From Candidatus Latescibacterota bacterium (GTDB lineage: Bacteria > Latescibacterota > UBA2968 > GCA-2709665), in contig OZ244937.1 of the NCBI GenBank assembly GCA_965222075.1, positions 2,464,001-2,528,000 on the forward strand: a DNA stretch of 64,000 nucleotides. Reading direction: 5' to 3'. Shown in pieces: positions 25,677 to 44,673 of this stretch. Below the pieces are notes generated by a model. It saw only the letters and a program-made list of their open reading frames with translations. It made no database searches and was not told where the DNA came from. Position 1 is the stretch's first letter. Each line of letters starts with the position of its first letter. Both the position numbers and the translations under genes were made by a program.

Positions 25677-26861
25677 ATGGGCACAGCCTTCGACCAACAC
25701 ATCACCAGAGTCAAATCGGAAGTCCAGGAGATCTCCCCACAAGAGGCGCAGCAGCGTCTTGAGGAGGCGAACGCCATCCTGCTCCTGGATGTCCGGGAAC
25801 GTGAAGACTATGCGAACGGATACATTCGGGACGCAGAGAACCTGCCCCGGGGCTTTCTCGAGCTTCAAATAGAGGGAAAATCCAACGACCGGTCCGCCGC
25901 CATCCTGGTCTACGGCGATGAGAACCAGGGGCCGCTGGCCGCCCGCGACCTTCAAAACATGGGCTACACCGACGTAACCTGCATCGAAGGAGGATTTGAC
26001 GCCTGGGTCGCGGCGGGCCTCCCCCAGGCCCGGCACAGGGCCCTCAGCAAGGCCGAGGTCCAGCGCTACTCCAGACACCTCCTCGTCCCGGAAGTAGGGG
26101 AAAAGGGGCAGGGCAAGCTCTTAGACGCCAGGGTCCTGATGATCGGCGCCGGTGGCCTGGGAAGCCCGGCGGCGTTCTACTTAGCCGCCGCAGGAGTGGG
26201 CACCATCGGCATTGTGGACGCCGACATGGTCGATGTGACCAACCTGCAGCGCCAGATCCTCCACGGCACCTCCGACCTGGGGCGGCCCAAGGCCATCTCC
26301 GCCTATGAGACCCTCCGGGACCTCAATCCGGGGTGCAACGTCGTTCCATACGTGGACTACCTCTCCTCGGATAATGTGATGGATATCCTGGCCGACTACG
26401 ACATCGTGGTCAACGGGTGCGACAACTTCCCCACCCGCTATCTGATCAACGACGCCTGCGTCTTCACACGCAAGCCGCTTGTGGACGGATCCATCTTCCG
26501 CTTCGACGGCCAGGTGACGGTCTTTACCTGCGATTCGGAAGGGCCCTGCTACCGCTGCCTCTATCCCGAACCACCGCCCGCCGAACTGGCCCCCTCCTGC
26601 GCCGAGGCGGGCGTTCTGGGCGTGCTGCCGGGCACGGTTGGCGTGATCCAGGCCACGGAGACGATCAAACTTATCCTCGGCCAGGGCGACCCGCTCATCG
26701 GCAAGCTGCTGATGTATGACGCGCTTTCCATGAACTTCAAAACCTTCAAAATAAACCAGGATCCGAACTGCCCGGTATGTGGAGACAATCCGTCGGTCAC
26801 CGAACTGATCGACTACGAGGCCTTCTGCTCCGGAGTGAACCATCAGGTCGCTGCCGATTAG
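25677..26861 (+). CDS. moeB: Rhodanese-MoeB fusion (MoeZ-like sulfur-carrier adenylyltransferase)
   Basis: N-terminal rhodanese fold; RYSRHL, GAGGLG, NLQRQ, DNFPTRY, CYRC, CPVC. Confidence 0.9.
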   Translation: MGTAFDQHITRVKSEVQEISPQEAQQRLEEANAILLLDVREREDYANGYIRDAENLPRGFLELQIEGKSNDRSAAILVYGDENQGPLAARDLQNMGYTDVTCIEGGFDAWVAAGLPQARHRALSKAEVQRYSRHLLVPEVGEKGQGKLLDARVLMIGAGGLGSPAAFYLAAAGVGTIGIVDADMVDVTNLQRQILHGTSDLGRPKAISAYETLRDLNPGCNVVPYVDYLSSDNVMDILADYDIVVNGCDNFPTRYLINDACVFTRKPLVDGSIFRFDGQVTVFTCDSEGPCYRCLYPEPPPAELAPSCAEAGVLGVLPGTVGVIQATETIKLILGQGDPLIGKLLMYDALSMNFKTFKINQDPNCPVCGDNPSVTELIDYEAFCSGVNHQVAAD

Positions 26862-26868
26862 CGTTGAC

Positions 26869-26906
26869 GCAACAAAAGGGGCGCTCTTTTAAGAGCGCCC
26901 CTTTTC
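26869..26906. terminator. Bidirectional terminator, left edge of island 2
   Basis: AAAAGGGGCGCTC-TTTTAA-GAGCGCCCCTTTT. Confidence 0.85.
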
Positions 26907-27161
26907 TTTGTACGGCTTGTGCCTTCTGGTGGGTCAATTGGTTTGGTTATAGCCAATGGATTGATTTCGATGTATACTTGAGCATCGCCATAAGATTTAC
27001 CGGAGTAACATTTGCCCTGGAGGTGCTCGATGGCTCTGGGATAATCTCAGGTTACCACCGAAAAGTCCAATTCCGTCTGAATCATAACAAGCGAAGGGCC
27101 GAATGGCCCGGAGCCGGGCACAGTCGTGTTATAGGAAGTGCCAGCATGACAACTGCGCAGT

Positions 27162-27605
27162 TTATTCAGGCAATCTTACCATCTGAACGTGAGTAGAATC
27201 TTCATCGGCGATCTTGAATCCCAGCCTTTGGTAGAAGGCGATGCCACGGGGGTTGATCTTTAATACTTGAAGGGTCACAGCCTTCTCCTCAGCGCCAGCA
27301 TCGTCGATAATGCGTGTCATGCACGCTGACCCGATTCCTCTCCCCTGGTACTCAGGGAGGATAAAGAGCTGATGGACCTTGAGCGAATCGGAAGTAGAGG
27401 ATGTAGACAAGATACCAACGTCGTTTCCTTGAAATCGGATAACGTGAAAATCCTGTGAAGCAAACCGCGTATTATGTAGTTCCCTTTGATGGGTATGGTC
27501 CCAGCCCCAGACCTGTTCCACATATCCGCGGAATGCTGCCTCCTTCACGGCAAAGGCAAAGTCGCTGTCAAGCGCATTCGCCTTGCGAATGCTCAACTCC
27601 TCCAC
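27162..27605 (-). CDS. GNAT acetyltransferase (cassette-like)
   Basis: LFILPEYQGRGIG, LQVLKIN..IAFYQRLGF; probable GTG start 27605. Confidence 0.85.
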   Translation of the reverse strand: MEELSIRKANALDSDFAFAVKEAAFRGYVEQVWGWDHTHQRELHNTRFASQDFHVIRFQGNDVGILSTSSTSDSLKVHQLFILPEYQGRGIGSACMTRIIDDAGAEEKAVTLQVLKINPRGIAFYQRLGFKIADEDSTHVQMVRLPE

Positions 27606-27678
27606 GGCAAGACTCCCGATGCCACACTCGTCATGCGCCAAACTACTCACAACGTGTTGTCCCTGGTGACCATTTTGA

Positions 27679-27853
27679 TGGCATTTCCTATAACGTTTGG
27701 CGTCTGCGACGGCTTCCGGTCCGGCGCAGCCGGATTGGCGCAGCAGTTGCCATTCGCTTCTTTTTAAAATCACTTGCAACTGACGTGACAAAGGAAGCTG
27801 TGTCCGAAGGGCCGAAGGAGCGTAGCGACTGAAGCGCAGACATGGTGTTGGAC
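27679..27853 (+). mobile_element. attC-like integron cassette recombination site
   Basis: CCTATAAC...GTCTGCG / CGCAGAC...GTTGGAC; left end is a 15/16 inverted match to 27128-27143. Confidence 0.6.
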
Positions 27854-27950
27854 GAAGTTCTTGGGGTGGTGCCACTATCAGTTTTACATTCAAGGCGTTG
27901 ATAAAGCACGCGACATTAGGATTCGTTGCTTTTTTTCAGGACAGAACGGG

Positions 27951-28793
27951 TTATCCAGTAGGATAGGCACAGTCTGCATTTCCATTATCATAACTCCAAT
28001 AAACCATTGTTGCACTATCTTTTCCCTTTTCTTGATCAACCCTTTTCAACACTTCCAACACATTTGATTTGATCCCAACTTGCCCATCTGTGTTCTTCCT
28101 GGATAAACTCTCATAAAGGAATTCGGAATTCTCAAAAGGTCGAGACCCGCATTCCAATAATCCATCAGTGATCATGACTATCTGATTCTCGCTTTTTCTC
28201 AATTCTCTTGTTCCTGATGTATAACAGGGTACCGGCAAATCAAAAGAACTCACCTGCCCAATCCACTCATAATAGCTCCTTTGATTTAGAGCGTACTGGC
28301 CAAGATGGGCCAGCTCCGAATGGAACAAATAAATAAGGCAGTCTCCAATTGAAAACCACCATAAAAACCGATCTCTTTGAACACAGATCAAGCAAGCAGT
28401 TTCCCCTCGAATCTGTTTGCATTTGGTCTTAAAATCCTCCGAAGTGAACAGATCAATAAGAAGCCGGTGTAGTAATGAAAATAGCTTCTCTACGGGTAGA
28501 CCCAAAATGGCAGTAATGCGCTCTTCCTCTGATTCAATCATATCCAGAACCAATTTCGCGCTTTGAATGCTATTGTGAGCATCGAGCAATACTGCAAACT
28601 TCCAAGCCCCATTTTCTGCACACCAAACTAAAGCTCCATCCTCATTTTTGACAGCACCAGCGTCTGAATTGCCTCCATAACAGCCGACAATGACATCTCT
28701 ACAAGTTTGGATGGTGGGTTCATCCAAATACATATTATCACTGCCTAACCACCTAAATTTCAAGATGTTTCCATGATGCTCCGGAGTTTCCAT
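27951..28793 (-). CDS. PP2C-domain protein phosphatase-like protein, AT-rich
   Basis: KNEDG, LLDAH, FSIGDC, MITDGL, KDSAT metal-binding motifs. Confidence 0.75.
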   Translation of the reverse strand: METPEHHGNILKFRWLGSDNMYLDEPTIQTCRDVIVGCYGGNSDAGAVKNEDGALVWCAENGAWKFAVLLDAHNSIQSAKLVLDMIESEEERITAILGLPVEKLFSLLHRLLIDLFTSEDFKTKCKQIRGETACLICVQRDRFLWWFSIGDCLIYLFHSELAHLGQYALNQRSYYEWIGQVSSFDLPVPCYTSGTRELRKSENQIVMITDGLLECGSRPFENSEFLYESLSRKNTDGQVGIKSNVLEVLKRVDQEKGKDSATMVYWSYDNGNADCAYPTG

Positions 28794-28814
28794 TTACCTT
28801 GCCCTCCTTTAGCC

Positions 28815-31800
28815 GCTTCAATGAGGCCGCCTGCCTGTGCGGTGCACGCAGACAGGCGATCTAATGACCGCGGAAATAACCGGATACACGGACAGGGGGG
28901 TTAGGGGGGGAATGCTTCAATGAGGCCGCCTGCCTGTGCGGTGCACGCAGACAGGCGATCTAATGACCGCGGAAATGATGGATTCCGATTTCACTCCGGG
29001 GGTGACGCGATACCTGCTTCAATGAGGCCGCGATCTAATGACCGCGGAAATCCGAGGCACATATATCATACCCTGGCAAAAATCGTTGCTTCAATGAGGC
29101 CGCGATCTAATGACCGCGGAAATCCAGATGGACAGCACGGCTCATCGTGGTGGCTATATGCTTCAATGAGGCCGCGATCTAATGACCGCGGAAATGACGC
29201 CCCCGACGACCTCATAAAGAAATTCTACGACGAGCTTCAATGAGGCCGCGATCTAATGACCGCGGAAATGTGGGGTGGCAGCGGGCAAGAGGGGTATGAA
29301 GGCGATGCTTCAATGAGGCCGCGATCTAATGACCGCGGAAATACGAATTCGGATCCGCCTTCGGGGAGCTCGACGTCGCTTCAATGAGGCCGCGATCTAA
29401 TGACCGCAGAAATAGGCTGGGCAAGGGCAAGTCCGGCCCCATCCCTCATATGCTTCAATGAGGCCGCGATCTAATGACCGCGGAAATGTACTTTGGTATT
29501 CTGATTATGGCTTTGTTTCGGGGGCTTCAATGAGGCCGCGATCTAATGACCGCGGAAATGGATATGGACAGGTCAATACGAGAGGCGCTAATCAGGCTTC
29601 AATGAGGCCGCGATCTAATGACCGCGGAAATGGACCGGAAGGTAATCCATGACCGTATCGACAGACACGCTTCAATGAGGCCGCGATCTAATGACCGCGG
29701 AAATCCCACACACCGCCAGCACCCAGGCCGGCCGTCGTGATGCTTCAATGAGGCCGCGATCTAATGACCGCGGAAATCAGGATCACCAGCCGCAATGGGT
29801 ATGCCGGGTTGCCATATTGCTTCAATGAGGCCGCGATCTAATGACCGCGGAAATAAGCACCAGGAAGCACAAGACGCCACCTCCGAGAGGAGCTTCAATG
29901 AGGCCGCGATCTAATGACCGCGGAAATAGGGGTGCTTCGGGCCTTGCTGCCTTGCAACATATAGCTTCAATGAGGCCGCGATCTAATGACCGCGGAAATG
30001 CCCACCAACGCGATGCACACTTTACGCCAGGCATACGGCTTCAATGAGGCCGCGATCTAATGACCGCGGAAATAGGGCGAGGGAGAGGGGGGCGCGAATC
30101 AGTTCACTATGCTTCAATGAGGCCGCGATCTAATGACCGCGGAAATGTCGGGCCGGTGTTCCATGTCGAGCACGGTGCCCCCGCTTCAATGAGGCCGCGA
30201 TCTAATGACCGCGGAAATATGCTATGGTAATCTTTGAGCCGGCGAACGTTAAGTAGCTTCAATGAGGCCGCGATCTAATGACCGCGGAAATCACTTCAGA
30301 CCAGAACGAGAAGACCCGATATGACAAGCTTCAATGAGGCCGCGATCTAATGACCGCGGAAATATAGGTGGCCCCCTCAAGGCTATTCGCCATACCCTGG
30401 CTTCAATGAGGCCGCGATCTAATGACCGCGGAAATCGCTGTCGGGCAACTCACAATGGAGTAACTCTGCCTCGCTTCAATGAGGCCGCGATCTAATGACC
30501 GCGGAAATGACGTGAAATACGGCCTCAGCAACTTCGAGGACAAGACGGCTTCAATGAGGCCGCGATCTAATGACCGCGGAAATTCATCGTATGCCATTTC
30601 AACCCATTTCTCTTGACCTTGCTTCAATGAGGCCGCGATCTAATGACCGCGGAAATCACCCTCAGCCCGGCGGGCGCCGAGCCCTGGCCGTAGGCTTCAA
30701 TGAGGCCGCGATCTAATGACCGCGGAAATTCTTGGGGCCGGAGACGCTGCATCAGCTTCAGTGGTTTGCTTCAATGAGGCCGCGATCTAATGACCGCGGA
30801 AATTACACTATCGGATCGGCAAGCACAACGGGTTTCATTTGCTTCAATGAGGCCGCGATCTAATGACCGCGGAAATGCGGAAATTCTTGCGCTGGTTGCG
30901 TCGTTCCGCGACGTCGCTTCAATGAGGCCGCGATCTAATGACCGCGGAAATAATCTTTGGGGTGCGCCATGCTCACTCTCCGCTCTCGCTTCAATGAGGC
31001 CGCGATCTAATGACCGCGGAAATTTCAATGACGGTGTTCGCGACGGTGCCAAATTTGACGCTTCAATGAGGCCGCGATCTAATGACCGCGGAAATTTGGT
31101 GATTTATCAACTGGCTTTGAGTGACCTATTTCGCTTCAATGAGGCCGCGATCTAATGACCGCGGAAATGTATGGCGTAGAAATCGCCCCGGTGCTGACCA
31201 CCTCGCTTCAATGAGGCCGCGATCTAATGACCGCGGAAATGTGCTGATGGCCGAGACCCTGGAGGCGTGTATCAATCGGCTTCAATGAGGCCGCGATCTA
31301 ATGACCGCGGAAATTCGAAGTCGTCGTCGTCCTTATCGCAGGCGTAAAGGCTTCAATGAGGCCGCGATCTAATGACCGCGGAAATTTAATCTCATTCGCC
31401 GTCTTCGTCAGGCTGTTCAAAGCTTCAATGAGGCCGCGATCTAATGACCGCGGAAATCCTATGGCGTAGACCAGTTTCCCCCTCTGGGCGTCTTGCTTCA
31501 ATGAGGCCGCGATCTAATGACCGCGGAAATATGGCGAAAGCGAAAGCGGAAGCCTTGCATCAAAGCGCTTCAATGAGGCCGCGATCTAATGACCGCGGAA
31601 ATGCAGCTGGGGTCCGTCTCTGAGGTCATCGACAACAAGCTTCAATGAGGCCGCGATCTAATGACCGCGGAAATGCAGCTGGGGTCCGTCTCTGAGGTCA
31701 TCGACAACAAGCTTCAATGAGGCCGCGATCTAATGACCGCGGAAATGCAACCCGAAGCTCCGTTACCGGCGCAAGTCTGACAGGCTTCAATGAGGCCGCG

Positions 31801-32475
31801 ATCTAATGACCGCGGAAATCGTTCTTTGATTCTCTTTCATAACTTCGATCAGATAGCTTCAATGAGGCCGCGATCTAATGACCGCGGAAATGCGCCGGGG
31901 TGGGCCTTAATCCCGCTGAGCTCAAAGATGCTTCAATGAGGCCGCGATCTAATGACCGCGGAAATGCGGCAATTGCGCGCCGACCTTGTACGCCTGTTCC
32001 TTGCTTCAATGAGGCCGCGATCTAATGACCGCGGAAATCATGTTGTATACGGTGAAAAACGGCATCATGATTTGCTTCAATGAGGCCGCGATCTAATGAC
32101 CGCGGAAATGAGCTGGGCGTCGTCACACAGATGCGTGGGGGCCTCCTGCTTCAATGAGGCCGCGATCTAATGACCGCGGAAATAGTAAAAAACTTTGAGG
32201 ACCGAGAGCATGGAACGAAAGCTTCAATGAGGCCGCGATCTAATGACCGCGGAAATGCATAAGGGGCTGATCATGACAAAAGTCTACGTATCAGCTTCAA
32301 TGAGGCCGCGATCTAATGACCGCGGAAATTCTGGGCGCGTATGTTGCACGCAGGGTCCAAAACAGGCTTCAATGAGGCCGCGATCTAATGACCGCGGAAA
32401 TGATCTGAACGAAGAGCGGGCCGAGCGGGACGATACCCTGCTTCAATGAGGCCGCGATCTAATGACCGCGGAAAT
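28815..32475 (-). CRISPR. Type I-G (I-U) CRISPR array, 50 repeats / 49 spacers; repeat ATTTCCGCGGTCATTAGATCGCGGCCTCATTGAAGC
   Basis: 36-bp repeats counted by hand, spacers ~35-41 bp; 3' ATTGAAGC handle; leader on cas1 side; two trailer repeats are 63 bp; one point variant at 29408. Confidence 0.98.
28830..28856. mobile_element. 27-bp palindromic mini-insertion in terminal CRISPR repeat (second copy 28929-28955)
   Basis: CCTGCCTGTGCGGTGCACGCAGACAGG; removal restores exact consensus repeat. Confidence 0.85.
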
Positions 32476-32659
32476 AGCCTATACCGTAATCAACTTATTT
32501 TCAACAACCTGCCCAGGCAAATGCGAGCGGCCACATCCCAGACGCCTGAATCCGAATCCTCCACTGATCCCTCCTATGTTTAAGTGACTGTAAACATTGC
32601 CTCTTCAACCGACGCGAGCACCCTCCGGATTTTCCTCGCCGCCTCGCCGCTCGCAAGGC
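32476..32659 (-). promoter_or_regulatory. CRISPR leader
   Basis: Non-coding segment between cas1 stop and first repeat, with TGCGAGCGG (32522-32530) / CCGCTCGCA (32647-32655) inverted motifs. Confidence 0.8.
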
Positions 32660-34465
32660 TCAGCGCGTTACAAAAACCGGGTACCTGCTCAACTCGCCCT
32701 GAAGCGTTTTGGCGAGCAGACGGGCCTGGATTTCGAGTAATCGCCGATAACTGACACGATAGTCGAAGAGAGGATGCGTAACCAGCGTGTTCATCCGAGC
32801 CTCATACGCGCGGAAGAACCCTTTTCGACCTGCAACCGTCAACGCAACCGCGTTCCCCGAAGACACGAAGTCGCGCTCGGAGACCATCTTTGTGTTCACC
32901 GCGCTGAGCACGGCAGAGTCCACGATCAGGGGACGTAGCGGTTCCATCAGATCTAACGCCAGCGCCGGCCGGCCATGACGCGGCTGATGATAGAAACCGA
33001 TCATCGGATCAAAGCCAACAGCATAGCAGGCAACGGTCAGATCCTTCGTCAGGAGGCTATAGCCGAGCGACAACAGGGCATTGACGGGGTCGCGCGGCGG
33101 CCGGCGATTCCTGGCCTGAAAATTGAAGGAGAACGCCGGATCGCCGTCCCATTCTTCGTCGCGTTTCAACATGCCTCCGAACAACCCGAAATAGATGCGT
33201 GCCGCCCAGCCCTCAAAGCCCAACAGTTCTTCAAGCGACCCGGCCGTTTCCGCTTGACCTACGATCCACGTCAATTCACGCAACACCGCCCTGGACGGTT
33301 CGATGTGATTGCGCCGCAGCATCGTTCGTTGATTGCGAATCTTGCCTGCCACGAGTTGGCGGGCAAGGCGCAGGCAGTACCAGGGTTCGTCGGATAGACG
33401 GAACTGCGCCTGCCGCAAGAAGACGTTCTTCGTGTTGAGCCCGGACGTGACCCCGTAGAACCATCCCCCCTGGGAAAAGTAGCAGATAGGGATCTCCGCC
33501 GTACACAATGCCTGCACGGCCTGCGTGGTCATTTGAACACTGCCCATCAGGCTGACCTGGCAGATCTCGTTGATGCGCACTTCCTGAACCACCTTGTCAC
33601 GCTCTTTGACGCGGAGGACGCCGTTGCTCTTGCCCACGCGCAGTCTATGGGAATTCAAATACAGAGGCTTCTGGTCGGTGCGCGGCGCGACAAGGCGTCG
33701 GACCTCCTGGACCGCAGGTTTCAGGCTTTGTCGCGTGCCATGGAACAAGTCGAGCTGTTCCGCGCCTTCGGGCTCGATGTGAGCTTGCAGATGCCAGGTC
33801 TCATCCGGCATACAGATACCGACCAACGAGCAGCCGGGGCACTTGGGCGAGTCAATGAGTGGCGGCGGTATCTCGATCGCCGCGGCCGTCGTCCACGCCT
33901 CCGCGATGGCTCGCTCGGCTTCGGCGATCGTCTCGTCGTCGAAAGGCACACGCACCCGCTGTCGCGTCTTATGGTAGAAAATGACGCCTTCGTCACAGCA
34001 ATAGCCGTGGGCGCGCAACACGAGCGCCTGGACAGATAGTTGAACGCGGTCGTTGGGCCAGGCTTCCACACCGTGCTCACTGGCCATTGGACGGCCGTGT
34101 TTGTAATCGACCGGCGTGACCCGCCCCTCCGTGAATTCTGCCAAATCCAGCTTGGCGATGACGCGATGTTCTTCCGACGACAGCGTGATTGACCGCACGA
34201 CGACGGGCGCTTCCGATTCTTCACCTGTCTGCGTGCGGTGACGCACAGGCAGGTCGGGCCGGGGCGCCGCCTGTGCTTCCCGGTCGACGCGCTTGTGCTG
34301 GACCGCCCCCTCGGCGGTGTGCTCGTTGTGGACAAAGATACCTTCCACTTGTTCGAAGTAGAACAGCCGCGGGCAATAGACATACTCATTGATCATGCGC
34401 GCGGGGAGATAGTCGGGCAACGGCCGACGGGACGCGTGAAGTTCCTGAGCGGGGGGAGCGCTCAT
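32660..34465 (-). CDS. cas1: Cas4-Cas1 fusion
   Basis: YCPRL, KLD, PVDYK, KCPGCSLVGIC (Cas4); NQRTMLRRN, GFEG, RPPRDPVNALLS, DLMEPLRP (Cas1). Confidence 0.95.
   Translation of the reverse strand: MSAPPAQELHASRRPLPDYLPARMINEYVYCPRLFYFEQVEGIFVHNEHTAEGAVQHKRVDREAQAAPRPDLPVRHRTQTGEESEAPVVVRSITLSSEEHRVIAKLDLAEFTEGRVTPVDYKHGRPMASEHGVEAWPNDRVQLSVQALVLRAHGYCCDEGVIFYHKTRQRVRVPFDDETIAEAERAIAEAWTTAAAIEIPPPLIDSPKCPGCSLVGICMPDETWHLQAHIEPEGAEQLDLFHGTRQSLKPAVQEVRRLVAPRTDQKPLYLNSHRLRVGKSNGVLRVKERDKVVQEVRINEICQVSLMGSVQMTTQAVQALCTAEIPICYFSQGGWFYGVTSGLNTKNVFLRQAQFRLSDEPWYCLRLARQLVAGKIRNQRTMLRRNHIEPSRAVLRELTWIVGQAETAGSLEELLGFEGWAARIYFGLFGGMLKRDEEWDGDPAFSFNFQARNRRPPRDPVNALLSLGYSLLTKDLTVACYAVGFDPMIGFYHQPRHGRPALALDLMEPLRPLIVDSAVLSAVNTKMVSERDFVSSGNAVALTVAGRKGFFRAYEARMNTLVTHPLFDYRVSYRRLLEIQARLLAKTLQGELSRYPVFVTR
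34224..34253. mobile_element. 30-bp palindromic mini-insertion, in frame in cas4 domain
   Basis: CCTGTCTGCGTGCGGTGACGCACAGGCAGG; arms match the element in the CRISPR repeats. Confidence 0.8.
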
Positions 34466-34482
34466 ATTGACTCTCACCTCCA

Positions 34483-34779
<297 letters not shown>

Positions 34780-34875
34780 TCAGAAGGTTGATCTATGTTT
34801 CGGTGCTGTGCGCTGGAGCATTCGTGCGAGATAGAGAACTTGGACTGTTCAACACGCGCCGTAAACCCGTCGGGC

Positions 34876-34916
34876 TTACGGAATAACCTCAAAGCCCATC
34901 TGTCGGTAGACCTCAC
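34876..34916 (-). pseudogene. Remnant of VapC/PIN toxin
   Basis: GTG overlaps antitoxin stop (GTGA); YRQMGFEVIP* resembles PIN C-terminus (FxxxGF). Confidence 0.55.
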
Positions 34917-35164
34917 CGGTACAGCACTTCATCGTGCAGTGCGGCAACGTCCCCCGATTCGGATTTACCAACGGCTGGGGCCTGGTACAGCGAATCAGAT
35001 TCCAGTGGCGCGTTTCCGATCGGTGGACTGCCAACCGGGACGATGTCGAAAGCCGGACGACTGCGGTATAGAACGGTAAATCGCTCCCCGCGCCGCACTC
35101 TCTTAACGACATCCTGCAGGCGCTCTCGAAGCTGTTTGGCGCTGATCACCTCTGGCATAGTCAT
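34913..35164 (-). CDS. Phd/YefM-family antitoxin
   Basis: ISAKQLRERLQDVVKRVRRGERFTVLYRSRPAFDIVP; AAGGAG SD. Confidence 0.85.
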   Translation of the reverse strand: MTMPEVISAKQLRERLQDVVKRVRRGERFTVLYRSRPAFDIVPVGSPPIGNAPLESDSLYQAPAVGKSESGDVAALHDEVLYR

Positions 35165-35171
35165 GCTCCTT

Positions 35172-35213
35172 TCAAGTTTAACTCAAGATAATCTTTTCTC
35201 GAAAGCGATACAA
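35172..35213 (-). promoter_or_regulatory. Antitoxin promoter/operator (copy A)
   Basis: TTGTAT-N17-TATCTT followed by AGTT-N-AACT dyad. Confidence 0.7.
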
Positions 35214-35234
35214 GCACCCAAGCTCTACTGGACG

Positions 35235-36845
35235 TTAATCACGTGCGAACATTCCAAGGCCAAAATGGCAGGCATAGCCAAGAGCTAAGGGTCCCTTAAT
35301 TGGCTCGTTAAAACTCAGGCGCAGCAAGGCCCCTTGCGCGTCGGGTTGTTTCTCTCGCCCCCGCGAACGGAACCGGTGAAAATGGACTGGTCGGCGGGAA
35401 ACACCATGGACCTTGATGTTGCTCAAGATCTCGACTTGAACAGGCCCAGTACGCGAACTGGATGCGATCTCCCGGCGTTTCCAAAGCCGGTTTACCTCGC
35501 CCTCATAGCCAGCCTTTTTCAAATGACCAGCCGCCAAAAAGGGCGTTATGCTGACCCATTCATCGGAACAGCCAAATAGCCTTGATGTATCCGCAAAGTC
35601 CTCCGGGCGGCCAAAGCCCTCCAGGGCCAGCCGCCATTCCTGGCGGCCGCTCTCTTCATCTCCTTCTTCTCCACCGGAATCGTTTCTGCTGACCCACAAT
35701 CGGGTCAAGCGATCCAGCTTCTCGCGCACTGCGGCATCGAAACCTTCCTCTGCGTAAACCGATATGTGGTCAATCCAGCCATCGCCATCGGCGTCCTCGG
35801 GCAGCCAAAAAGCGTGAGAATGCCGACCGTCTCGCAAAGGTTTGTTGTCGGGACCGCGGCCCGAGATCACCGACGGCGCTTTGGGTCTCCTGTTCTTCCA
35901 ACCGAACTTGGAAAGCACGGCCAGCCGCATGAGTTCGCCGATCTTGACTGCGTCCTCAATGCGAGGTAGTGGACGGCCGGCCAGGAGATAGCGCGCTACG
36001 GTGAAACGATTGCGGCCAACGGCGTGGCGACGCGGACTAACATGTCGCGGAACGGGCGACAGCGGCGGACGAATGTAAACGATCTCGCGTGCGGCCGGCG
36101 GCCGATTCCAGCGGTACTTCTGGTAATCGGCCGTATCAAGCGTCAAGGCGTCGGACAAGCGTTCCGGCAAGGTCGGCCCAAACGCCTCGTTGTGCGCCCT
36201 TTCAAGTGCTTTGGGCGTGGGGAGTCTCTTGCCGGAAGCAGCGGCGCGGGAACGCTCTGCATCGTCGGCTTCCTCTAACAGGCGCGTGCGTTCTACGGCA
36301 TAGTCCCTGGCACTGCGCGGCACGAGCAACCGCACCGCTTCCCCGTCAGTGGCCCCATTTTGGCCGACCAGGCGGCAGTTTGTCTCTCCCCCCCAGTCGA
36401 TTGTCGCTTCGCAGTCAACCCAACTCTCGGCACGGCCCAAGTAGCCGATCCCTTCGGCGAGGTCGGCCGCCAAGTCAAAAAGATTTGCGTCCAATTCGAG
36501 TTCCGGCCAAACCGCTACGATCTTCTCGCCTTTGGGAAGGTGTGCGAAGGCGTCGAAGACGAGCGTCGTCTTCACCGGCGCGGGCATGTAGTGCCGGGTA
36601 TGCGCATGGATCGCGCCTTCGGGCAGGTGGTAGATCGGCACATCCTCGGCGAGCGCGTCCATTAGCCGGGCGAGCGCGTCCTCGGACCAGCGCACCCTGT
36701 CTCCCTTACGCCAATAGCTGGCGACGAGCGCCCGGAGAATGCGCCACGGCTCCGGCGGCCAAGCGACATCGGCTTCGTTGACATGGCGTCCCCACGGGGT
36801 GGCGTGATAGCGGCCCGTGGGGAAGCTGAAAGTAAGCGCGAACAT
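35235..36845 (-). CDS. csb2: Type I-G Csb2 (Cas5/Cas6 fusion)
   Basis: GRYHATPWG..VNE..WPPEPWRILRAL, YLGRAESW, GPLALGYACHFGLG. Confidence 0.92.
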   Translation of the reverse strand: MFALTFSFPTGRYHATPWGRHVNEADVAWPPEPWRILRALVASYWRKGDRVRWSEDALARLMDALAEDVPIYHLPEGAIHAHTRHYMPAPVKTTLVFDAFAHLPKGEKIVAVWPELELDANLFDLAADLAEGIGYLGRAESWVDCEATIDWGGETNCRLVGQNGATDGEAVRLLVPRSARDYAVERTRLLEEADDAERSRAAASGKRLPTPKALERAHNEAFGPTLPERLSDALTLDTADYQKYRWNRPPAAREIVYIRPPLSPVPRHVSPRRHAVGRNRFTVARYLLAGRPLPRIEDAVKIGELMRLAVLSKFGWKNRRPKAPSVISGRGPDNKPLRDGRHSHAFWLPEDADGDGWIDHISVYAEEGFDAAVREKLDRLTRLWVSRNDSGGEEGDEESGRQEWRLALEGFGRPEDFADTSRLFGCSDEWVSITPFLAAGHLKKAGYEGEVNRLWKRREIASSSRTGPVQVEILSNIKVHGVSRRPVHFHRFRSRGREKQPDAQGALLRLSFNEPIKGPLALGYACHFGLGMFARD

Positions 36846-36852
36846 TCAAGAC

Positions 36853-40118
<3,266 letters not shown>

Positions 40119-40129
<11 letters not shown>

Positions 40130-42551
40130 ATCCACCATCCAGTTCTTCTTTTGCTGATGCCCGCCAGTCCGCAATACGCACCAGTGCCTCCAGCAAAGCA
40201 AGCCGGAAAGGGCCGTACTGGGAAAGCAAGTGGCGCGTACGCTCGGTCCAACTCGCGCCTGTTTCCGGATGCTCCCCCAACTCCATCACGGATAGTGCGA
40301 GCGGCCCGCCGGACCAGGTTTCCCCATCGCCCAAGTCAACCGGCGGTACCTCATCACCCTCCCACACACCGCGTGCAAAACGGCGGCTACCATCTTCCAT
40401 TGCCGGCCTTTCGGCCGGAAGCGGACGCAAGTTCAGACGCACCTTGCCGTGATGGGCGGCGATCAGGTACGCAACCAGATCCGCCTCACGCACCCAGTCC
40501 GCTTGTGAGAGGATCGCGAGCGCAGACGCCAGCTCGTGCCGGAAATACGCACGTCCTTTCGTCCGGTCGTATTTCGGAGCCTTGGCTAACAACCCCTTCG
40601 GTCTTGAATCGGCCTCCAGATTACTCGCAACCATCCGTGCCTGAAATTCAGGGTGTGCCTTGCCGAGGTCGTGCCAGTACGCTGCCCGCACAATCGCTGC
40701 TTTCCAAGCTTCACAAACGCCGAGGCCATCGCACAGGTGACCAGCTTCAAAAGCCACGTGATCCAGATGGTCCGTCAGGCCCACGAACCCTCCCTGCTCG
40801 CTGTCAGAATCGGCGTCGTTCGACTCGTCTGCTGCCTGTGAGGGCAACTTCGCCGACTCCACGGGCTCGACTGCTGCTTTAATTGTCTGATCGAATCCCG
40901 TTTCCGGCGCGTACCCTCCGGCATTCGCATGAACCAACAATACCAAGCCCGGCCAAGGTGCCTCGCTGAACTCGGTCCAAGCAGGGACCCTGCCCTTACT
41001 TTCAGCTCGTGCCTGCGGGTCTATACGAAACACCCGCTGTCCTTCCTTTTTTCTTACATTCTCAAGCCAATTGCGCGCGCGCCCAATCGGAACCGCACAA
41101 AGCTCGTCCCGCATCGGCGCGGGCTGATCCTCCAGTCCAGTCGAAACGTCGAAATTGCGCCAGAAAACGCGAATATCGGTATCCTCGGCATCGCGGATGT
41201 AGGGAGCGACATCGACATCAAAACCGGTCAAATCTGGATCGGTGTCGTATAGGTCCAGCATATCCCTAGATCGCATCACCCACTGATGGGCGCAATCGTC
41301 GACTGCCGGCGGCACGAGATTGGACGGCCGGGCGTCCGTCAACACAGCAATCCGCTCGCGCCCGATTTTGAGCTCGTCAATCTCATAAGGAGCGGCCAGC
41401 GAATCATCGAGATCGCCACCGCTGAGATCAATCCAGCGGATCCTCCCGCCGCCGGAATCGTTCAATTCTCCGTAGCGGTTCACCCGACCAAACCGCTGGA
41501 CGAGGGACGAGGCGGGCGCGAGTTCGGTGAGCATGACCGCCGCCGAAAGATCGACACCCGCTTCAATCGCCTGCGTCGCAACGACAATCAAGTCTTTCAC
41601 TTCCCCAGGCTCCGGCAGCTTGTCCATCTGCGCTTTGCGGTCTTTGGGCCGAAAGCGCGAGTGAATGAGGGCGAGGCGGGTGGGCGGAATATCCTTTTTC
41701 TGGAGTTCCTTATGCACAGCTTGAGCGCGGGCGACGGTATTGACCACCACGAGCGTCGTGCGGTTCCCTTGGTGCAGATGCAGAGTTTCCTCCGCCAACG
41801 CCGTGGCGTAGGCATCCAGATCGTCTTTCTTGTCGCTCACAGGTGCGACGGGTGTCTGTTGAATCGGCTTGGGCGCGTCAATCAGCTTGCGGACATGCGG
41901 CGATTGCGCGTCTTCGGGGAAATCGTCTGGAACGCGCCAAACTGTCGGACTTTGCTGGAAATCAACCGTGCATAGCCAGTCTGGATGAAGGGTCGCCGAC
42001 ACCCAGAGACTGCGCGAGGCAATCTCCGTCCCCAATTTGCGGCGAAAGCCTTCAAGTTGTGTGGAGGTCGCCAGTCCCGAGCCCATGAGTTGCACCTCGT
42101 CAAAGACCCACTGCGCGTCGTTGTGCAGCAACGCGAAGTCCACCGGCCAGCGGAAGCGGCTCATGGCGTACCCCCGCATCAGGGCGCGACTGAGCAGCAT
42201 GTCTTGTGTCCCAATCAGGATGGCCGGATGCTCGGGGTTTTCAAACCAGCGCGGTTCGTCAATGCCCCCCATCAGGACATGGACTCCGGTTTCGGGATCC
42301 GGCAGGCGCGATTTCCAGTGCATATCTGCTTCGCCCAGCCGTCGCAGCCATTCTCTGACATTCCGCTCCGTCTGGTCAACGAGTGTGCGCATCGGCAGGC
42401 AATAGACGAGGCGACGTGGATCGTATGGCGTCAACATCCGGTAAGTGGCCGAGGCGCCCATTATCCGTTTGAGTTTGGCCATCGAAGGAGTGAGTCCAGT
42501 GTTCTCGCCATCACTCTCCAAAGGCTGCTTCGTGTCGTTGTCGGAGTTCAC
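40119..42551 (-). CDS. cas3: Type I-G Cas3 (SF2 helicase + C-terminal HD nuclease) lacking Walker A
   Basis: GTG after AGGAG; RRLVYCLPMRTLV, DEVQ, SAT, QRFGRVNR; HD motifs HDLGK, RHE, HHG, ADW; no GKT in protein. Confidence 0.9.
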
Positions 42552-42584
42552 GCAATTGCTCCTGTGAGGGTTCGACCCGGTTCC

Positions 42585-42933
42585 CGACGCCAACATGAAC
42601 GCGTCCACGGGAATGAGCCGCTCATTCACGGGGTCAATGCCCAAGCTGAATATCTCCAAAGTGACAGCGCCAAGCAGCGGTTGCACGCAGAACACAACAG
42701 GCGAAATGTCCTCGCGGCCGCAGTCGCATCCAGGTCCTTCCAAAGCCTCGCTCAACGCGGCTGCCATCGGCGAGGACGAACCTCCGGACACTGTGCGGAA
42801 CCACGCCCAAGCGCTCGAGGATCGAAGCCGGAAGGACTGTGCAGGTCGCCCCGGAGTCCACCATGGCTTCGACGGTTTCGTAATGGCGGCCTTCCGGATC
42901 AGCCACCTCGAGCGGCACAATAAACGTACGCAT
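42585..42933 (-). pseudogene. Clan AA (retropepsin-like) aspartic protease, frameshifted
   Basis: AMVDSGAT active site, FVLADG; C-half PLLGAVTLE..LGIDPVNERL in another frame (shift near 42720). Confidence 0.75.
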
Positions 42934-43011: not shown

Positions 43012-44559
43012 TCAAGCCCGCTCTACCTCGAACGCCGTCAGGTTGCGCGCGTCCTTGCTGAACTCCACGGCGACCAGGTAAATCGGCTGGCCCAGGCCTC
43101 GATACTTGTCGGCGTAGCGCTTCTCTTTCAACTGGGCCAGCGCCGCGCCCTCCGGCGTCATTTCCACTACCTTGAACTCGAAGAGGTAGACGTTGTCGTT
43201 GAAGCGAACCGCCATGTCTACGCGGCCGTGGCTGCTGCTGTCCTCCACCGTGATGTCCAGCCCCAGCGCCGCAAAATAGGAGTAGAACACGCTGGCGTAA
43301 TAGCCCTCGTAGCGGGCGATGTCGTTGTTCGTGTACCACTCGTAGGGTATGCTGGCAAAGAAGGCGTGGAATAACGTCTCAAGGCCGGCGAAGTCGTTGG
43401 CCTCCAGCAGCCGGTAGAGCCGGACGCTGTTCGCCATCTGCCGCGATGGGTCCTTCACCAGGTAGCGCAACAGACTCCGGTTCAGGCTCTGCCACACTTC
43501 CCGATTGGGATAGCCGAGGCGATAGACAGGCTCGCCGCCGAGGTCCTCCTCGTCGGTTATCGTGAGGTAGCCGGTCTGGAACAGCAGCGCCTCCGTCGCC
43601 ATATCGTCCACGTCAAAGGTGGACAGCAGATCCCCGCTGCCGACCATGTCATCCAGAGCAAGGGCACTTACCCGGCGCTTGCACAGCGTTTCGACCAGGA
43701 ACGCCGGCGTGCCCGTCTCGAACCACCAGGCACCGAACCTGCGCTTGTCGAAGAGCAGCAGGATGTCGAAGGGGTTGTACATCTTCTCGTCGCCCAGCCA
43801 GCTGTAGCCGTTGTACCAGTCGCGGATCTCGTCCCGGTCGAGGCCGGGGAGCTCCGGCGCGAACACCGTGTCGAGGTCCGCCTCGGTGTAGCCGCAGATA
43901 GCGGAATAGCGCGGGTCGAGGGTGATGTCGATGAGGTTGTTGAGGCCGGAGAACAGGCTGACCTTGGAGAACTTGCTCACTCCGGTAATAAAGGTGAAAC
44001 GGATGTGGGCATCGCTGTCCTTGATCGTCGCATAGAAGCCGCGCAGAAAGTCGCGGTTGGCGCGGGCGACCTCCGGCGTATCCAGTGCGTCCAGGATCGG
44101 CTTGTCGTATTCGTCAATCAACACCACAACGCGCTGACCAACACGCTCGTGCAGCGCCTTGATCAAGTGGCGGAAGCGGGCCGGCGTGGTGTTGTAGCGA
44201 GCAGGGACCGCCGTTTCGTCCCCCAGGGCCTCCAACCGGTCCATCACTTCCGCGCGCAGATCGTCCGGGCGCTGGAAGTTGCCGCTGCCGAAGCTGAGAC
44301 GCAGGACGGGGTGGCGCACCGACCAGTCCCAGTGATCGTGGATGTCCAGCCCCTCGAACAGCGGCTTGTTGCCCTCGAACAGCTCCTTGCACGTGTCCAG
44401 GAACAGGCTCTTGCCGAAGCGCCGCGGGCGCGACAGGAAGTAGTGCTTGCCCTCGTCAAGCAGCCTGCGGATGTAGGCCGTCTTGTCGACATAGTAGCAG
44501 TCCTCCTCGCGGAGCTCGCCGAAGGTCTGCATACCGATGGGTAGTCTGCGTCTGGGCAT
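43012..44559 (-). CDS. AAA-ATPase-like + PD-(D/E)XK nuclease domain protein
   Basis: LPIGMQTF, YYVDKT, SRPRRFGKSL, LIDEYDKP, WYNGY, GRVD..LFEFK..QLKEKRY. Confidence 0.9.
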   Translation of the reverse strand: MPRRRLPIGMQTFGELREEDCYYVDKTAYIRRLLDEGKHYFLSRPRRFGKSLFLDTCKELFEGNKPLFEGLDIHDHWDWSVRHPVLRLSFGSGNFQRPDDLRAEVMDRLEALGDETAVPARYNTTPARFRHLIKALHERVGQRVVVLIDEYDKPILDALDTPEVARANRDFLRGFYATIKDSDAHIRFTFITGVSKFSKVSLFSGLNNLIDITLDPRYSAICGYTEADLDTVFAPELPGLDRDEIRDWYNGYSWLGDEKMYNPFDILLLFDKRRFGAWWFETGTPAFLVETLCKRRVSALALDDMVGSGDLLSTFDVDDMATEALLFQTGYLTITDEEDLGGEPVYRLGYPNREVWQSLNRSLLRYLVKDPSRQMANSVRLYRLLEANDFAGLETLFHAFFASIPYEWYTNNDIARYEGYYASVFYSYFAALGLDITVEDSSSHGRVDMAVRFNDNVYLFEFKVVEMTPEGAALAQLKEKRYADKYRGLGQPIYLVAVEFSKDARNLTAFEVERA

Positions 44560-44673
44560 GGGCACGTTACTCCAGGCACCGGGCGATGTAATCCTTAACC
44601 AGTTCCGTTTGGGCTGCACTGCGAACGGAGCCCGTTTTCCGTACTTGACGAATCCGGAATCGCAGCACCTTTC

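Follow-up and report, generated by a model that had tools for sequence, protein, structure and literature searches.

The type I-G CRISPR-Cas locus

The window, by which we mean the whole 64,000-nucleotide stretch analysed from a Candidatus Latescibacterota bacterium (contig OZ244937.1), contains a type I-G CRISPR-Cas locus (Table 1). The genes cas3g, csx17/cas8g, csb1/cas7g, csb2, cas2 and a cas4-cas1 fusion adjoin an array of 50 repeats and 49 spacers (35-41 nt long). Each of the six passes the cut-off of its NCBIfam model, which agrees with the Csb2 system named in an earlier, sequence-only reading of this DNA. From general knowledge of type I-G systems we take the csb2 product to be the repeat processor. 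The consensus repeat of 36 nt is found 48 times (47 exact, one with a single mismatch at 29378), and the remaining two repeats are each filled with a 27-bp insert. The array matches Rfam CRISPR-DR16 on the minus strand, at 32.2 bits and below the gathering score of 35 bits; moreover, the cas operon and a conserved leader lie at the opposite end, and the filled repeats are indeed those of the trailer end, as the sequence-only reading had them. The PP2C gene shares the strand of the array, and its start codon follows the terminal filled repeat at a distance of 21 nt. A second anomaly of the array is a pair of consecutive identical spacers (31603-31638 and 31675-31710).

Table 1. Features of the type I-G locus and its surroundings (positions in the window).
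Feature	Position	Strand	Evidence or remark
PP2C-family phosphatase gene	27951..28793	-	PF13672, 54 bits
Terminal (trailer-most) CRISPR repeat, 63 nt	28815..28877	-	36-nt consensus plus 27-bp element; X4 record 27
Element copy 1, CCTGCCTGTGCGGTGCACGCAGACAGG	28830..28856	+	sequence match; minus strand (crRNA sense) folds better
Spacer between filled repeats, 36 nt	28878..28913	-	unique in genome
Second-to-last CRISPR repeat, 63 nt, identical to terminal	28914..28976	-	X1 record 6 spans 28829-28943
Element copy 2	28929..28955	+	same sequence, site and orientation as copy 1
Spacer with filled repeat at its 3′ flank; crRNA 3′ end expected to be affected	28977..29015	-	
Other 48 regular 36-nt repeats with spacers	29016..32475	-	Rfam CRISPR-DR16, minus strand, below gathering score
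Leader between cas4/cas1 and first repeat	32476..32659	-	conserved beside arrays of relatives G021 and G009
cas4g/cas1g fusion gene, 607 aa	32660..34483	-	NF049935, 740 bits, cut-off 560
Third family copy in window, 30 bp, in frame in cas4/cas1	34224..34253	-	site empty in G021 and G009 orthologues
cas2	34483..34773	-	
csb2 (Cas5-Cas6 fusion), presumed repeat-processing enzyme	35235..36845	-	TIGR02165
csb1/cas7g, csx17/cas8g and cas3g of the type I-G operon	36853..42920	-	

Anatomy of the filled repeats

The two filled repeats are identical 63-nt units, each composed of GCTTCAATGAGGCCG + CCTGCCTGTGCGGTGCACGCAGACAGG + CGATCTAATGACCGCGGAAAT, with the insert placed after GCCG of the consensus. 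The sequence-only reading had described a 27-bp palindromic mini-element in both trailer repeats, splitting the 3′ arm of the repeat stem, whose excision restores the consensus. Each of these points holds: the copies are identical and share the GCCG^CGAT site, the break falls at GATCG^CGG on the RNA strand, and removal of the 27 bp leaves exactly the 36-nt consensus. The 27-mer has exactly two matches in the window, where 0.00 are expected by chance (0/100 shuffles). The two copies are separated by 72 bp and the direct repeats that carry them are 99 bp apart. Because of a 2-nt GC microhomology, three placements of the insert are equivalent at the CRISPR site, which by itself also fits an insert of 25 bp together with a 2-bp duplication of GC. 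The claim that no target was duplicated is therefore ambiguous at this site but stands for other filled/empty pairs, which fit CCTG…CAGG without duplication.

Reads, which the sequence-only reading had named as a check, support the filled repeat through Logan contigs from three studies, among whose runs the source sample may itself be included. In X1, record 2 (28703-28844), record 3 (28815-28857) and record 6 each show 0 differences; X3 record 19 spans 28766-28844, and X4 record 27 covers 28766-28877, the entire filled terminal repeat, again with 0 differences. Depth over the spacer between the filled repeats is seen in X1 only and parts of the array are uncovered in every run; such holes are left by filters, are uninformative and prove nothing. 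The same contigs bear on the possibility that there was no insertion at all, the 63-nt form being either an assembly artefact or the ancestral repeat from which the 36-nt form derived. They join the filled repeat to the unique trailer flank; moreover, all 18 repeats in the array of relative G009 and all 29 in that of relative G021 are uninterrupted 36-nt units, and the 27-mer is present elsewhere in the genome and in many other genomes. Such a reading was weighed because repeats assemble poorly; nothing speaks in its favour, and we regard it as refuted and as having next to no probability.

A dispersed family of hairpins

The 27-bp insert is a copy of a GC-rich hairpin family, CCTGYCTG…CAGRCAGG, that has no CRISPR specificity. 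The motif, which the sequence-only reading had proposed to search for, has 229 copies in the genome, with modal lengths of 27 and 33 bp (overall 19-46 bp) and multiples of three in 172. The exact 27-mer occurs four times, and the two occurrences outside the CRISPR array have unrelated flanks. Most copies lie outside genes; 21 of the 229 are in frame between coding flanks, including those in cas4/cas1, where the 30-bp copy adds LPVRHRTQTG (residues 78-87), and in IS-like transposase paralogues. Nested copies, one element inside another, are also present. Copies cluster locally, with 62 of 228 neighbour gaps below 1.5 kb against 14.2 expected, and adjacent oriented pairs within 200 bp (n=17) share their orientation in 14 cases and are inverted in three.

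Across about 40 related genomes the copy number ranges from 0 to 292. Copies with identical stems were found in at least 118 loci under more than 20 phylum labels and one archaeal label, and in 19 viral contigs. In G019 the same 27-mer has been multiplied as the passenger of a larger repeat, with shared flanks in 20 of 21 sampled copies. None of 137 loci from other genomes and phages lies in a CRISPR context. A junction-specific pattern for a second filled array had 0 matches in genome contigs and two in metagenome contigs, both of which fall in an RHH-protein ORF and were rejected as chance. An Rfam scan of 26000-36000 at E<=1 matched the filled repeats to mir-214 only, which was judged spurious.

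Mobility and target site

Filled and empty alleles, which the sequence-only reading had proposed to look for, were found in both orthologues and paralogues. In a DNA alignment of three close orthologues, the 30-bp copy in cas4/cas1 is missing from the 85%-identical genes of G021 and G009. G021 has a copy between leader and cas1 at a place that is empty in G000 and G009. Paralogous empty sites with a gap of 0 include those at genome positions 297352, 552988, 931620, 1872327 and 1905896. The family thus inserts precisely at a purine-pyrimidine junction and leaves the target unduplicated. Among 93 oriented copies, position -1 is A in 54 and G in 36, position +1 is T in 51 and C in 33, and position -4 is C in 76, giving a flank consensus of C-N-S-R^Y; this flank is assigned to the target and not to the element because the empty sites carry it. 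Of 123 copies from other phyla, 101 have G at -1. The CRISPR site, GCCG^CGAT, is of the CG^C class and fits the family target.

A register offset by 1 nt, suggested by the cas4/cas1 site, was rejected because CCTG…CAGG is the one register compatible with the empty paralogue at 552988; the C/T difference seen in cas4/cas1 is synonymous (GAC/GAT). A preference for palindrome centres was likewise rejected: enrichment is confined to the ±1 pair (58.5% vs 25.2%), and symmetry reaching 3 bp or further occurs at background frequency (1.7% vs 1.5%). With respect to the replication strand the 93 oriented copies show a weak bias (37 vs 56, p=0.06).

One multicopy repeat of the genome shows repeated occupation of a single site. 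Its 37 copies share the site AAGGGCG^CCGCTCA, which is empty in 24, filled in 11 and composite in two, and all 11 filled sites hold the same 33-mer in one orientation. Filled and empty states combine with every flank haplotype, down to 6-8 bp from the site, and are scattered on the flank tree, which requires 12 changes where shuffling gives 11.0 on average; at least seven are forced by starred branches. Such scatter would be produced equally by recurrent gain and, if the ancestor was filled, by recurrent precise loss.

Predicted effect on the crRNAs

The 36-nt repeat folds into an 8-bp hairpin of -13.2 kcal/mol. For the 63-nt repeat the minimum free energy is -25.4 kcal/mol; in this fold the stem of the element continues into the repeat at the cost of the native hairpin (native pairs p<=0.017). 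The sequence-only reading had predicted a branched RNA, which the folding does not support: a structure that retains the stem reaches -21.1 kcal/mol, with an estimated probability of 1.6e-4. Owing to G.U wobbles the element itself folds better on the minus strand, the crRNA sense (-14.6 vs -10.2 kcal/mol on the plus strand). On the transcribed strand the 8-bp stem would thus be lost because the stronger hairpin of the element pairs into the repeat, and this stem is what the Cas6-like part of Csb2 should recognise. By this folding prediction, maturation would probably fail for the last spacer and for the 3′ end of the preceding one, and silencing of the crRNAs of the two oldest spacers is plausible.

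Origin of the second filled repeat

Site-specific re-insertion, conversion and Cas1-Cas2 copying, the three candidate origins named in the sequence-only reading, were compared for the second copy. On balance we lean towards re-insertion at the same site and in the same orientation, because the family shows such spread in another multicopy repeat. One copy would have entered a trailer-end repeat of the type I-G array, and the element would then have reached the next repeat, 72 bp further on, through re-insertion (targeted or local) or through copying of an extremely short patch. That only the oldest and least used end of the array is filled may be because insertions are tolerated there and exposure has been longest; selection against insertions in the array interior is assumed. 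A random double hit was rejected, since the same junction (1/9 R^Y), orientation, variant (4/229) and adjacency combine to about 1e-5. Other points count against re-insertion. A trailer-end block of variant repeats is the classical signature of inheritance by leader repeat duplication, and the terminal, contiguous position is explained more simply by duplication on the leader side. A strong homing target might be expected to have more than 2 of the 50 identical repeats filled. No variant-specific targeting of CRISPR is evident, given the unrelated flanks of the two other copies of the exact 27-mer, and the passenger copies in G019 show that hitch-hiking on the copying of a host repeat also happens in this family.

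The rival origins both start from a single insertion. In one, the 63-bp unit was duplicated by Cas4/Cas1-Cas2 during spacer integration, either when it was leader-proximal, the element then being precisely lost from the copy nearer the leader before the remaining 48 units were added, or by ectopic integration at the terminal repeat; with the palindrome extruded as a cruciform, the filled repeat could come within the reach of a 36-bp ruler. One insertion would then account for identity, site, orientation, adjacency and terminal position, and the spacer flanked by both units is of normal length. Precise loss could be helped by the GC microhomology and by the palindromic sequence, and in G019 family members do ride on host-repeat amplification. 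That the trailer-flank contig of X3 ends at 28844, as if there were two upstream contexts, and that the reference spacer has no depth in X3 are weak hints in the same direction, since gaps in cover also arise from filtering. In type I-B, an insert placed upstream of the only anchor was carried along unchanged in the duplication (Wang et al. 2016, quoted in PMC5039180). In type I-E, however, PMC5039180 describes rulers that measure 8 and 16 bp and are anchored in the inverted repeats; when an insertion lies between two such anchors, the shorter ruler brings the new repeat back to normal length. Here the insert is inside the leader-distal inverted repeat, so that the second cut of the ruler would fall within the element and yield a truncated new repeat; no such repeat is present, the only two element matches in the window being full. 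Moreover, the model calls for an additional precise excision or, failing that, for an ectopic integration 50 repeats away from the leader. Because these published type I-E mechanisms would not duplicate 63 bp, copying by Cas1-Cas2 appears the less likely origin, and we consider it improbable.

Gene conversion or template switching to the adjacent repeat during replication or repair would need neither element mobility nor Cas1-Cas2. It too accounts for identity, site, orientation and adjacency; neighbouring direct repeats at this distance are generally good substrates for template switching, and the identical consecutive spacers are another sign of internal recombination or duplication in this array. 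However, only 15 and 21 bp of homology lie beside the insert within the repeat, and simple slippage deletes or duplicates entire repeat-spacer units and does not convert one repeat. Moreover, the polymorphisms 6-8 bp from the site in the multicopy repeat were not co-transferred, unlike in ordinary conversion tracts, and the terminal position is left unexplained. We rate this origin as more improbable still. As a whole, the reading built on re-insertion, that a mobile copy of the hairpin family entered the trailer repeat, that the neighbour was filled by same-site spread and that crRNA maturation is impaired, has in our judgement slightly less than an even chance of being right in all its parts.

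Implications

The locus offers a natural case of a mobile micro-element in CRISPR repeats and, at the same locus, in cas4/cas1. The 63-nt repeats are a ready substrate for questions on type I-G systems, namely what Csb2 requires for cutting and whether Cas4/Cas1-Cas2 gauges repeat length by a ruler. The hairpin family itself may be the larger result, with identical stems across more than 20 phylum labels, under one archaeal label and in phage contigs; this spread points to a mobilisation mechanism not yet worked out. A further reading, which we hold to be less likely than not, is that the family represents a new cross-phylum class of hairpins of 19-45 bp that home site- and orientation-specifically without duplication and without a known hairpin-using transposase family. 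If so, the mover would be an unrecognised enzyme carried between phyla, given that phage copies exist, or ordinary replication and repair functions that act on the hairpin. CRISPR repeats would then be natural targets because they are hairpin-forming and repeated, and arrays and cas genes could erode from within. In proteins the elements add peptides of 9-11 residues, such as LPVRCTQTG. Lengthened repeats may cause array finders to truncate arrays, and elements of the family inflate the repeat graphs of metagenome assemblies.

Comparison with known systems

Among 41 genomes, Y1 transposase hits (PF01797) bear no relation to element counts: G019 has 139 elements and 0 Y1_Tnp matches, G038 one element and 75 matches. 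The Y1 genes of the genome studied here are an intact IS200-like tnpA without nearby copies and a broken tnpA that has one copy at a distance of about 150 bp. A RAYT or IS200 mover found no support: the search with PF01797 gave no RAYT-like gene flanked by copies and no co-occurrence. Enrichment of neighbouring genes at 137 loci (3043 ORFs) returned only common families (NtrC-type regulators, ABC ATPases) and genes common to six related phage contigs. The literature searched contained no account of the hairpin family or of REP-like insertions in CRISPR repeats.

According to PMC3733652, REP/REPIN-RAYT systems resemble this family in consisting of short (20-40 bp), GC-rich, imperfect palindromes of high copy number that are mostly extragenic, with some in frame within genes, that are patchy among related genomes and in which G.T pairs make one strand the better hairpin. 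REPs in that account carry a conserved end tag, GTAG or CGTC (PMC3733652), whereas the termini here are CCTG/CAGG without a tag. REPINs and BIMEs are inverted doublets, in contrast to the predominance of same orientation here and to single units that are polymorphic alone. A cognate Y1 gene is flanked by repeats in REP-RAYT systems, whereas here none is flanked and counts are unrelated; moreover, REPs are described as lineage-specific, whereas these stems are common to many phyla. MITEs have the terminal inverted repeats of an IS, a length of 70-300 bp and a target duplication, unlike the 19-46 bp and lack of duplication seen here. Among the Rickettsia palindromic elements (RPE), RPE-1, at about 100-150 bp, is also longer than this family. 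RPE and the intragenic REPs of Opitutus terrae are alike in being palindromes in frame in probably functional protein genes, and insertion into CRISPR repeats is not among what the part of PMC3733652 used here describes for them.

Degenerate CRISPR repeats of the trailer end are similar in that the aberrant repeats are here too at the oldest end of the array. They differ in that we see a clean insertion of a dispersed element in two repeats, the flanking 36 nt being intact, and no point-mutational decay.

The anatomy resembles single-strand HUH-type transposition in its hairpin, strand asymmetry, lack of duplication and oriented target. IS200/IS605 elements move by single-strand 'peel and paste' transposition, from which seamless excision is possible. 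Their hairpin derivatives share with this family strand-specific mismatches, the absence of target duplication and a one-sided oriented target (here -4 C and -1 R). However, IS200/IS605 have separate left and right subterminal hairpins, both of which a single 27-bp hairpin cannot hold. Their target is a fixed 4-5 nt 5′ of the left end and their lagging-strand bias is strong; here the left flank shows a C-N-S-R preference, the orientation bias is 37:56 (p=0.06), and Y1 co-occurrence is lacking. Small dispersed repeats (SDR, families SDR1-8) of heterocyst-forming cyanobacteria, the subject of Elhai et al. (2008, Genome Res 18:1484; cited in PMC3116915), are reportedly nested palindromic units of 21-27 nt that seem inserted without target duplication and are not known to have a transposase. 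By this description, and with what appear to be a different sequence family and host range, they would be the closest analogue in behaviour to the hairpins found here.

A hairpin insert in the two trailer-most CRISPR repeats

A single CRISPR array occupies 28815-32475 of the window; its 50 repeats are separated by 49 spacers, each 35-41 nt long. The exact 36-nt consensus is present in 47 repeats and one further repeat, at 29378, carries one mismatch. Each of the other two consists of the consensus with CCTGCCTGTGCGGTGCACGCAGACAGG placed after GCTTCAATGAGGCCG; this 27-mer arose in 0 of 100 shuffles. In public-run contigs from three studies the unique trailer flank is joined to a filled repeat with 0 differences, and a contig in one run links the two filled repeats across the intervening spacer; one of the runs carrying the filled repeat may be the source sample of the genome. 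These contigs support the insert that a sequence-only reading had reported in both repeats.

The 184 bp separating cas4/cas1 from the array are conserved beside arrays in two relatives, the other array end is not conserved, and the repeats match Rfam model CRISPR-DR16 on the minus strand, with a score below the gathering score. Given the side on which the cas genes lie, the conserved 184 bp and the strand of the CRISPR-DR16 match, we read the array on the minus strand and take the filled repeats to be the two oldest. Read-through from the array may reach the PP2C-family phosphatase gene.

Features of the CRISPR locus and its flanks (window coordinates)
Feature	Position	Strand	Remarks
PP2C-family phosphatase gene	27951-28793	minus	same strand as array; RBS and start codon 21 nt beyond terminal repeat
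Filled repeats	28815-28877 and 28914-28976		low-coordinate array end; identical 63-nt units
Leader	32476-32659	minus	conservation in two relatives
Type I-G set (cas3g, csx17, csb1, csb2, cas2, cas4/cas1 fusion)	32660-42920	minus	complete
30-bp family copy in cas4/cas1	34224-34253		in frame; adds LPVRHRTQTG, residues 78-87
AAA-ATPase_like + PDDEXK_9 protein gene	43012-44619	minus	directly upstream of cas3g

Three further observations concern the array itself. Counted from the trailer side, repeat 29378-29413 is the sixth regular one (the eighth if the two filled repeats are included); it alone among the regular repeats has a point change, GACCGCAG for GACCGCGG, in the stem. The consecutive spacers 31603-31638 and 31675-31710 have one and the same sequence, which points to duplication of a unit within the array. 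Spacers 30147-30182 (30/30 nt, genome 1676548-1676577) and 30657-30693 (36/37 nt, 4922490-4922526) match their own chromosome and, judged by these matches, could be self-targeting or aimed at resident mobile elements.

The insert belongs to a large, mobile family

A terminal-motif scan (CCTGYCTG…CAGRCAGG) of the whole 5.36-Mb genome returned 229 family copies, most commonly of 33 bp (n=88), 27 bp (n=44), 25 bp (n=16), 30 bp (n=15) and 36 bp (n=13), and in 172 of the 229 the length is divisible by three. There are several subfamilies; one of them, CCTGCCTGTG…GCAGACAGG (n=93), is asymmetric, and its C/T and A/G differences leave one strand with G.U pairs and the opposite strand with C.A mismatches. 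Four copies genome-wide have exactly the 27-bp sequence that is present in the CRISPR repeats. By a codon-usage test, which under-calls genes scoring poorly, 154 copies had no coding flank, 48 had one, 21 lay in frame between coding flanks, 2 were out of frame and 4 lay between opposite genes; for comparison, the test placed 834 of 2000 random sites in frame between coding flanks and found no coding flank at 386. Several IS-like transposase ORFs hold in-frame copies, read as LPVRCTQTG and similar peptides. Several in-frame family inserts (e.g. NADL^MFEML vs NADLPVRCTQTGLMFEML) distinguish two paralogous ORFs of ~515 aa (genome contig G000:C1, 2831384-2832922 and 3463690-3465237), both probably part of an insertion sequence. 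At 1139014-1139359 of the same contig, three tandem units of ~153-166 bp contain one 27-bp family copy each.

The copy in cas4/cas1 is absent from 85%-identical orthologues in two relatives. Since it sits in a proline-rich stretch that varies among orthologues, and the protein with the insertion retains an end-to-end match to its family model, it is probably tolerated. One relative has a different copy between leader and cas1, at a site that is empty in the window and in the other relative. Many more filled/empty pairs, that is, sites with and without a family copy, exist among paralogous sequences within the genome, with flanks that abut exactly. Further copies of the motif and empty-site alleles, which the sequence-only reading had proposed to look for as a check, are thus both present. 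Nested copies lie in loops or stems of other copies, in this genome and in other phyla.

Motif counts in 41 related genomes range from 0 (nine genomes) to 292, and within one genus likewise from 0 to 292. When each species was represented by one genome, a scan located the 27-mer with a free loop at no fewer than 118 loci. Labels among the matches listed, which are from metagenome bins throughout (some contigs 0.1-6 Mb), include Thermodesulfobacteriota, Nitrospirota, Verrucomicrobia, Kiritimatiellae, Planctomycetota, Methylomirabilota, Chloroflexi classes, Bacillota, several proteobacterial classes, Latescibacterota, Poribacteria and one Methanosarcinales label. The 27-mer also occurs in 19 viral stretches, six of them from related phages; these related viral contigs (L165, L167, L168, L173, L177 and L178) have structural genes in common and one or two 27-mer copies each.

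Insertion site and candidate enzymes

The insert begins with C, ends with G and lies between G and C, and can therefore be drawn in three registers, so that the CRISPR site taken alone is compatible with a 2-bp duplication. The filled/empty pairs agree on one register, in which the unit is exactly CCTG…CAGG, the adjoining bases are target sequence and duplication is 0. The absence of target duplication proposed earlier is thus supported by the clean pairs elsewhere rather than by the CRISPR site itself. Of the 93 oriented copies in this genome, 90 have A/G at position -1, 84 have T/C at +1, 68 have complementary bases at these two positions, and 76 have C at -4; of 123 copies in other phyla, 101 have G at -1. 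Flank palindromy past the first pair did not exceed that of random junctions. With respect to replication, the copies show a weak orientation bias (37 vs 56, p=0.06), and they are clustered, with 62 neighbour gaps below 1.5 kb against 14.2 expected.

These insertion traits recall HUH single-strand transposition, but no cognate enzyme was found in the genome or in the 41-genome comparison. Of the genome's IS200-type tnpA genes, one is intact and has no copies nearby, and one is broken with a single copy beside it. Y1 hits bore no relation to element counts across the 41 genomes: one genome has 139 elements and 0 hits, and two have 32 and 75 hits with 2 and 1 elements. Nor did any gene family recur beside copies at 137 loci. 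In the related genome G021 (locus L007, G021:C1:4547652-4548200) a 1252-aa open frame contains a weak Y1_Tnp-like match, and one copy of the 27-mer is situated ~300 bp upstream of this match; relatives G002, G003 and G020 have long frames of a similar kind, but neither the window's genome nor relative G019 yielded one.

Origin of the second identical copy

Two independent random hits were set aside because their joint odds, by arithmetic estimate, are ~1e-5 (1 of nine purine-pyrimidine junctions, the same orientation, a rare variant at 4/229, adjacent repeats). We lean, at somewhat short of an even chance, towards same-site spread by the element itself, which would move to the same site, in the same orientation, in the neighbouring repeat. 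A 37-copy genomic repeat shows a pattern of this kind at the site AAGGGCG^CCGCTCA (…AAGAAAAAGGCCGAAAAAGAAGGGCG^CCGCTCAGACGCCGCGGGGG…; e.g. G000:C1 4835817, 1905896 and 3405284): 24 copies are empty, 11 hold one same 33-mer in one orientation and 2 are composite. On the flank tree the filled state is scattered as shuffled labels are, with 12 changes, at least 7 of them forced by well-supported branches, and it accompanies all flank haplotypes, including those defined by polymorphisms 6-8 bp from the site. The family is therefore characterised by repeated gain (or precise loss) at one site in a fixed orientation.

Copying of a filled repeat by Cas1-Cas2 would be the simplest account of a terminal block, yet we consider it somewhat unlikely. 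In type I-E (PMC5039180), anchors in two inverted repeats define the second cut, at distances of 8 and 16 bp, and insertions located between these anchors are corrected to normal size. The insert lies within the leader-distal inverted repeat, where a type I-E-like ruler should place its cut within the insert (the array here is type I-G); the truncated repeat expected from this is not present in the array, and later precise loss or ectopic integration would be required besides. Ordinary conversion between neighbouring repeats agrees with the two consecutive identical spacers, but its homology arms measure merely 15 and 21 bp, and we judge it unlikely. Hitch-hiking also occurs in the family, since in relative G019 the same 27-mer has multiplied as the passenger of a larger repeat (20/21 sampled copies); it is central in this multicopy repeat (loci L184-L203; CCGTTGAAAAAGYCCATCCGGGCTG, 27-mer, CGKCCGGCCCTTG…), which accounts for most of the 44 copies in that genome.

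Predicted effect on the repeat RNA

On the RNA strand the insert falls at GAUCG^CGG and interrupts the 8-bp stem in its 3′ arm. The 36-nt repeat is predicted to form the expected hairpin (-13.2 kcal/mol). For the 63-nt repeat a branched RNA had been proposed, but the minimum-energy fold (-25.4) instead prolongs the element stem into the repeat; the branched fold keeping the native stem lies 4.3 kcal/mol higher, with an estimated probability of 1.6e-4 and native pairs at ≤0.017. Cas6-type processing needs the hairpin, and Csb2 is presumed to be alike. If so, these folds suggest that the last spacer would be without both processing sites and the preceding spacer without its 3′ site. The cost of losing both is probably small, as they are the oldest.

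Comparison with known elements

Identity with MITEs was rejected because the copies are too short and make no duplication. In size, structure and copy number the family is like REPs. However, the GTAG or CGTC tag of REP/REPIN-RAYT systems is absent, their inverted doublets were not seen (14 neighbour pairs are direct and 3 are inverted), and a Y1 gene associated with the family was not found. In behaviour the family comes closest to what is reported for cyanobacterial small dispersed repeats. A search of openly accessible articles found no account of the family and no case of such an element within CRISPR repeats; an earlier description is possible. We regard the family as REP-like mobile palindromes, a previously known kind in a new form, and there is a real chance that their mechanism of mobilisation is new.
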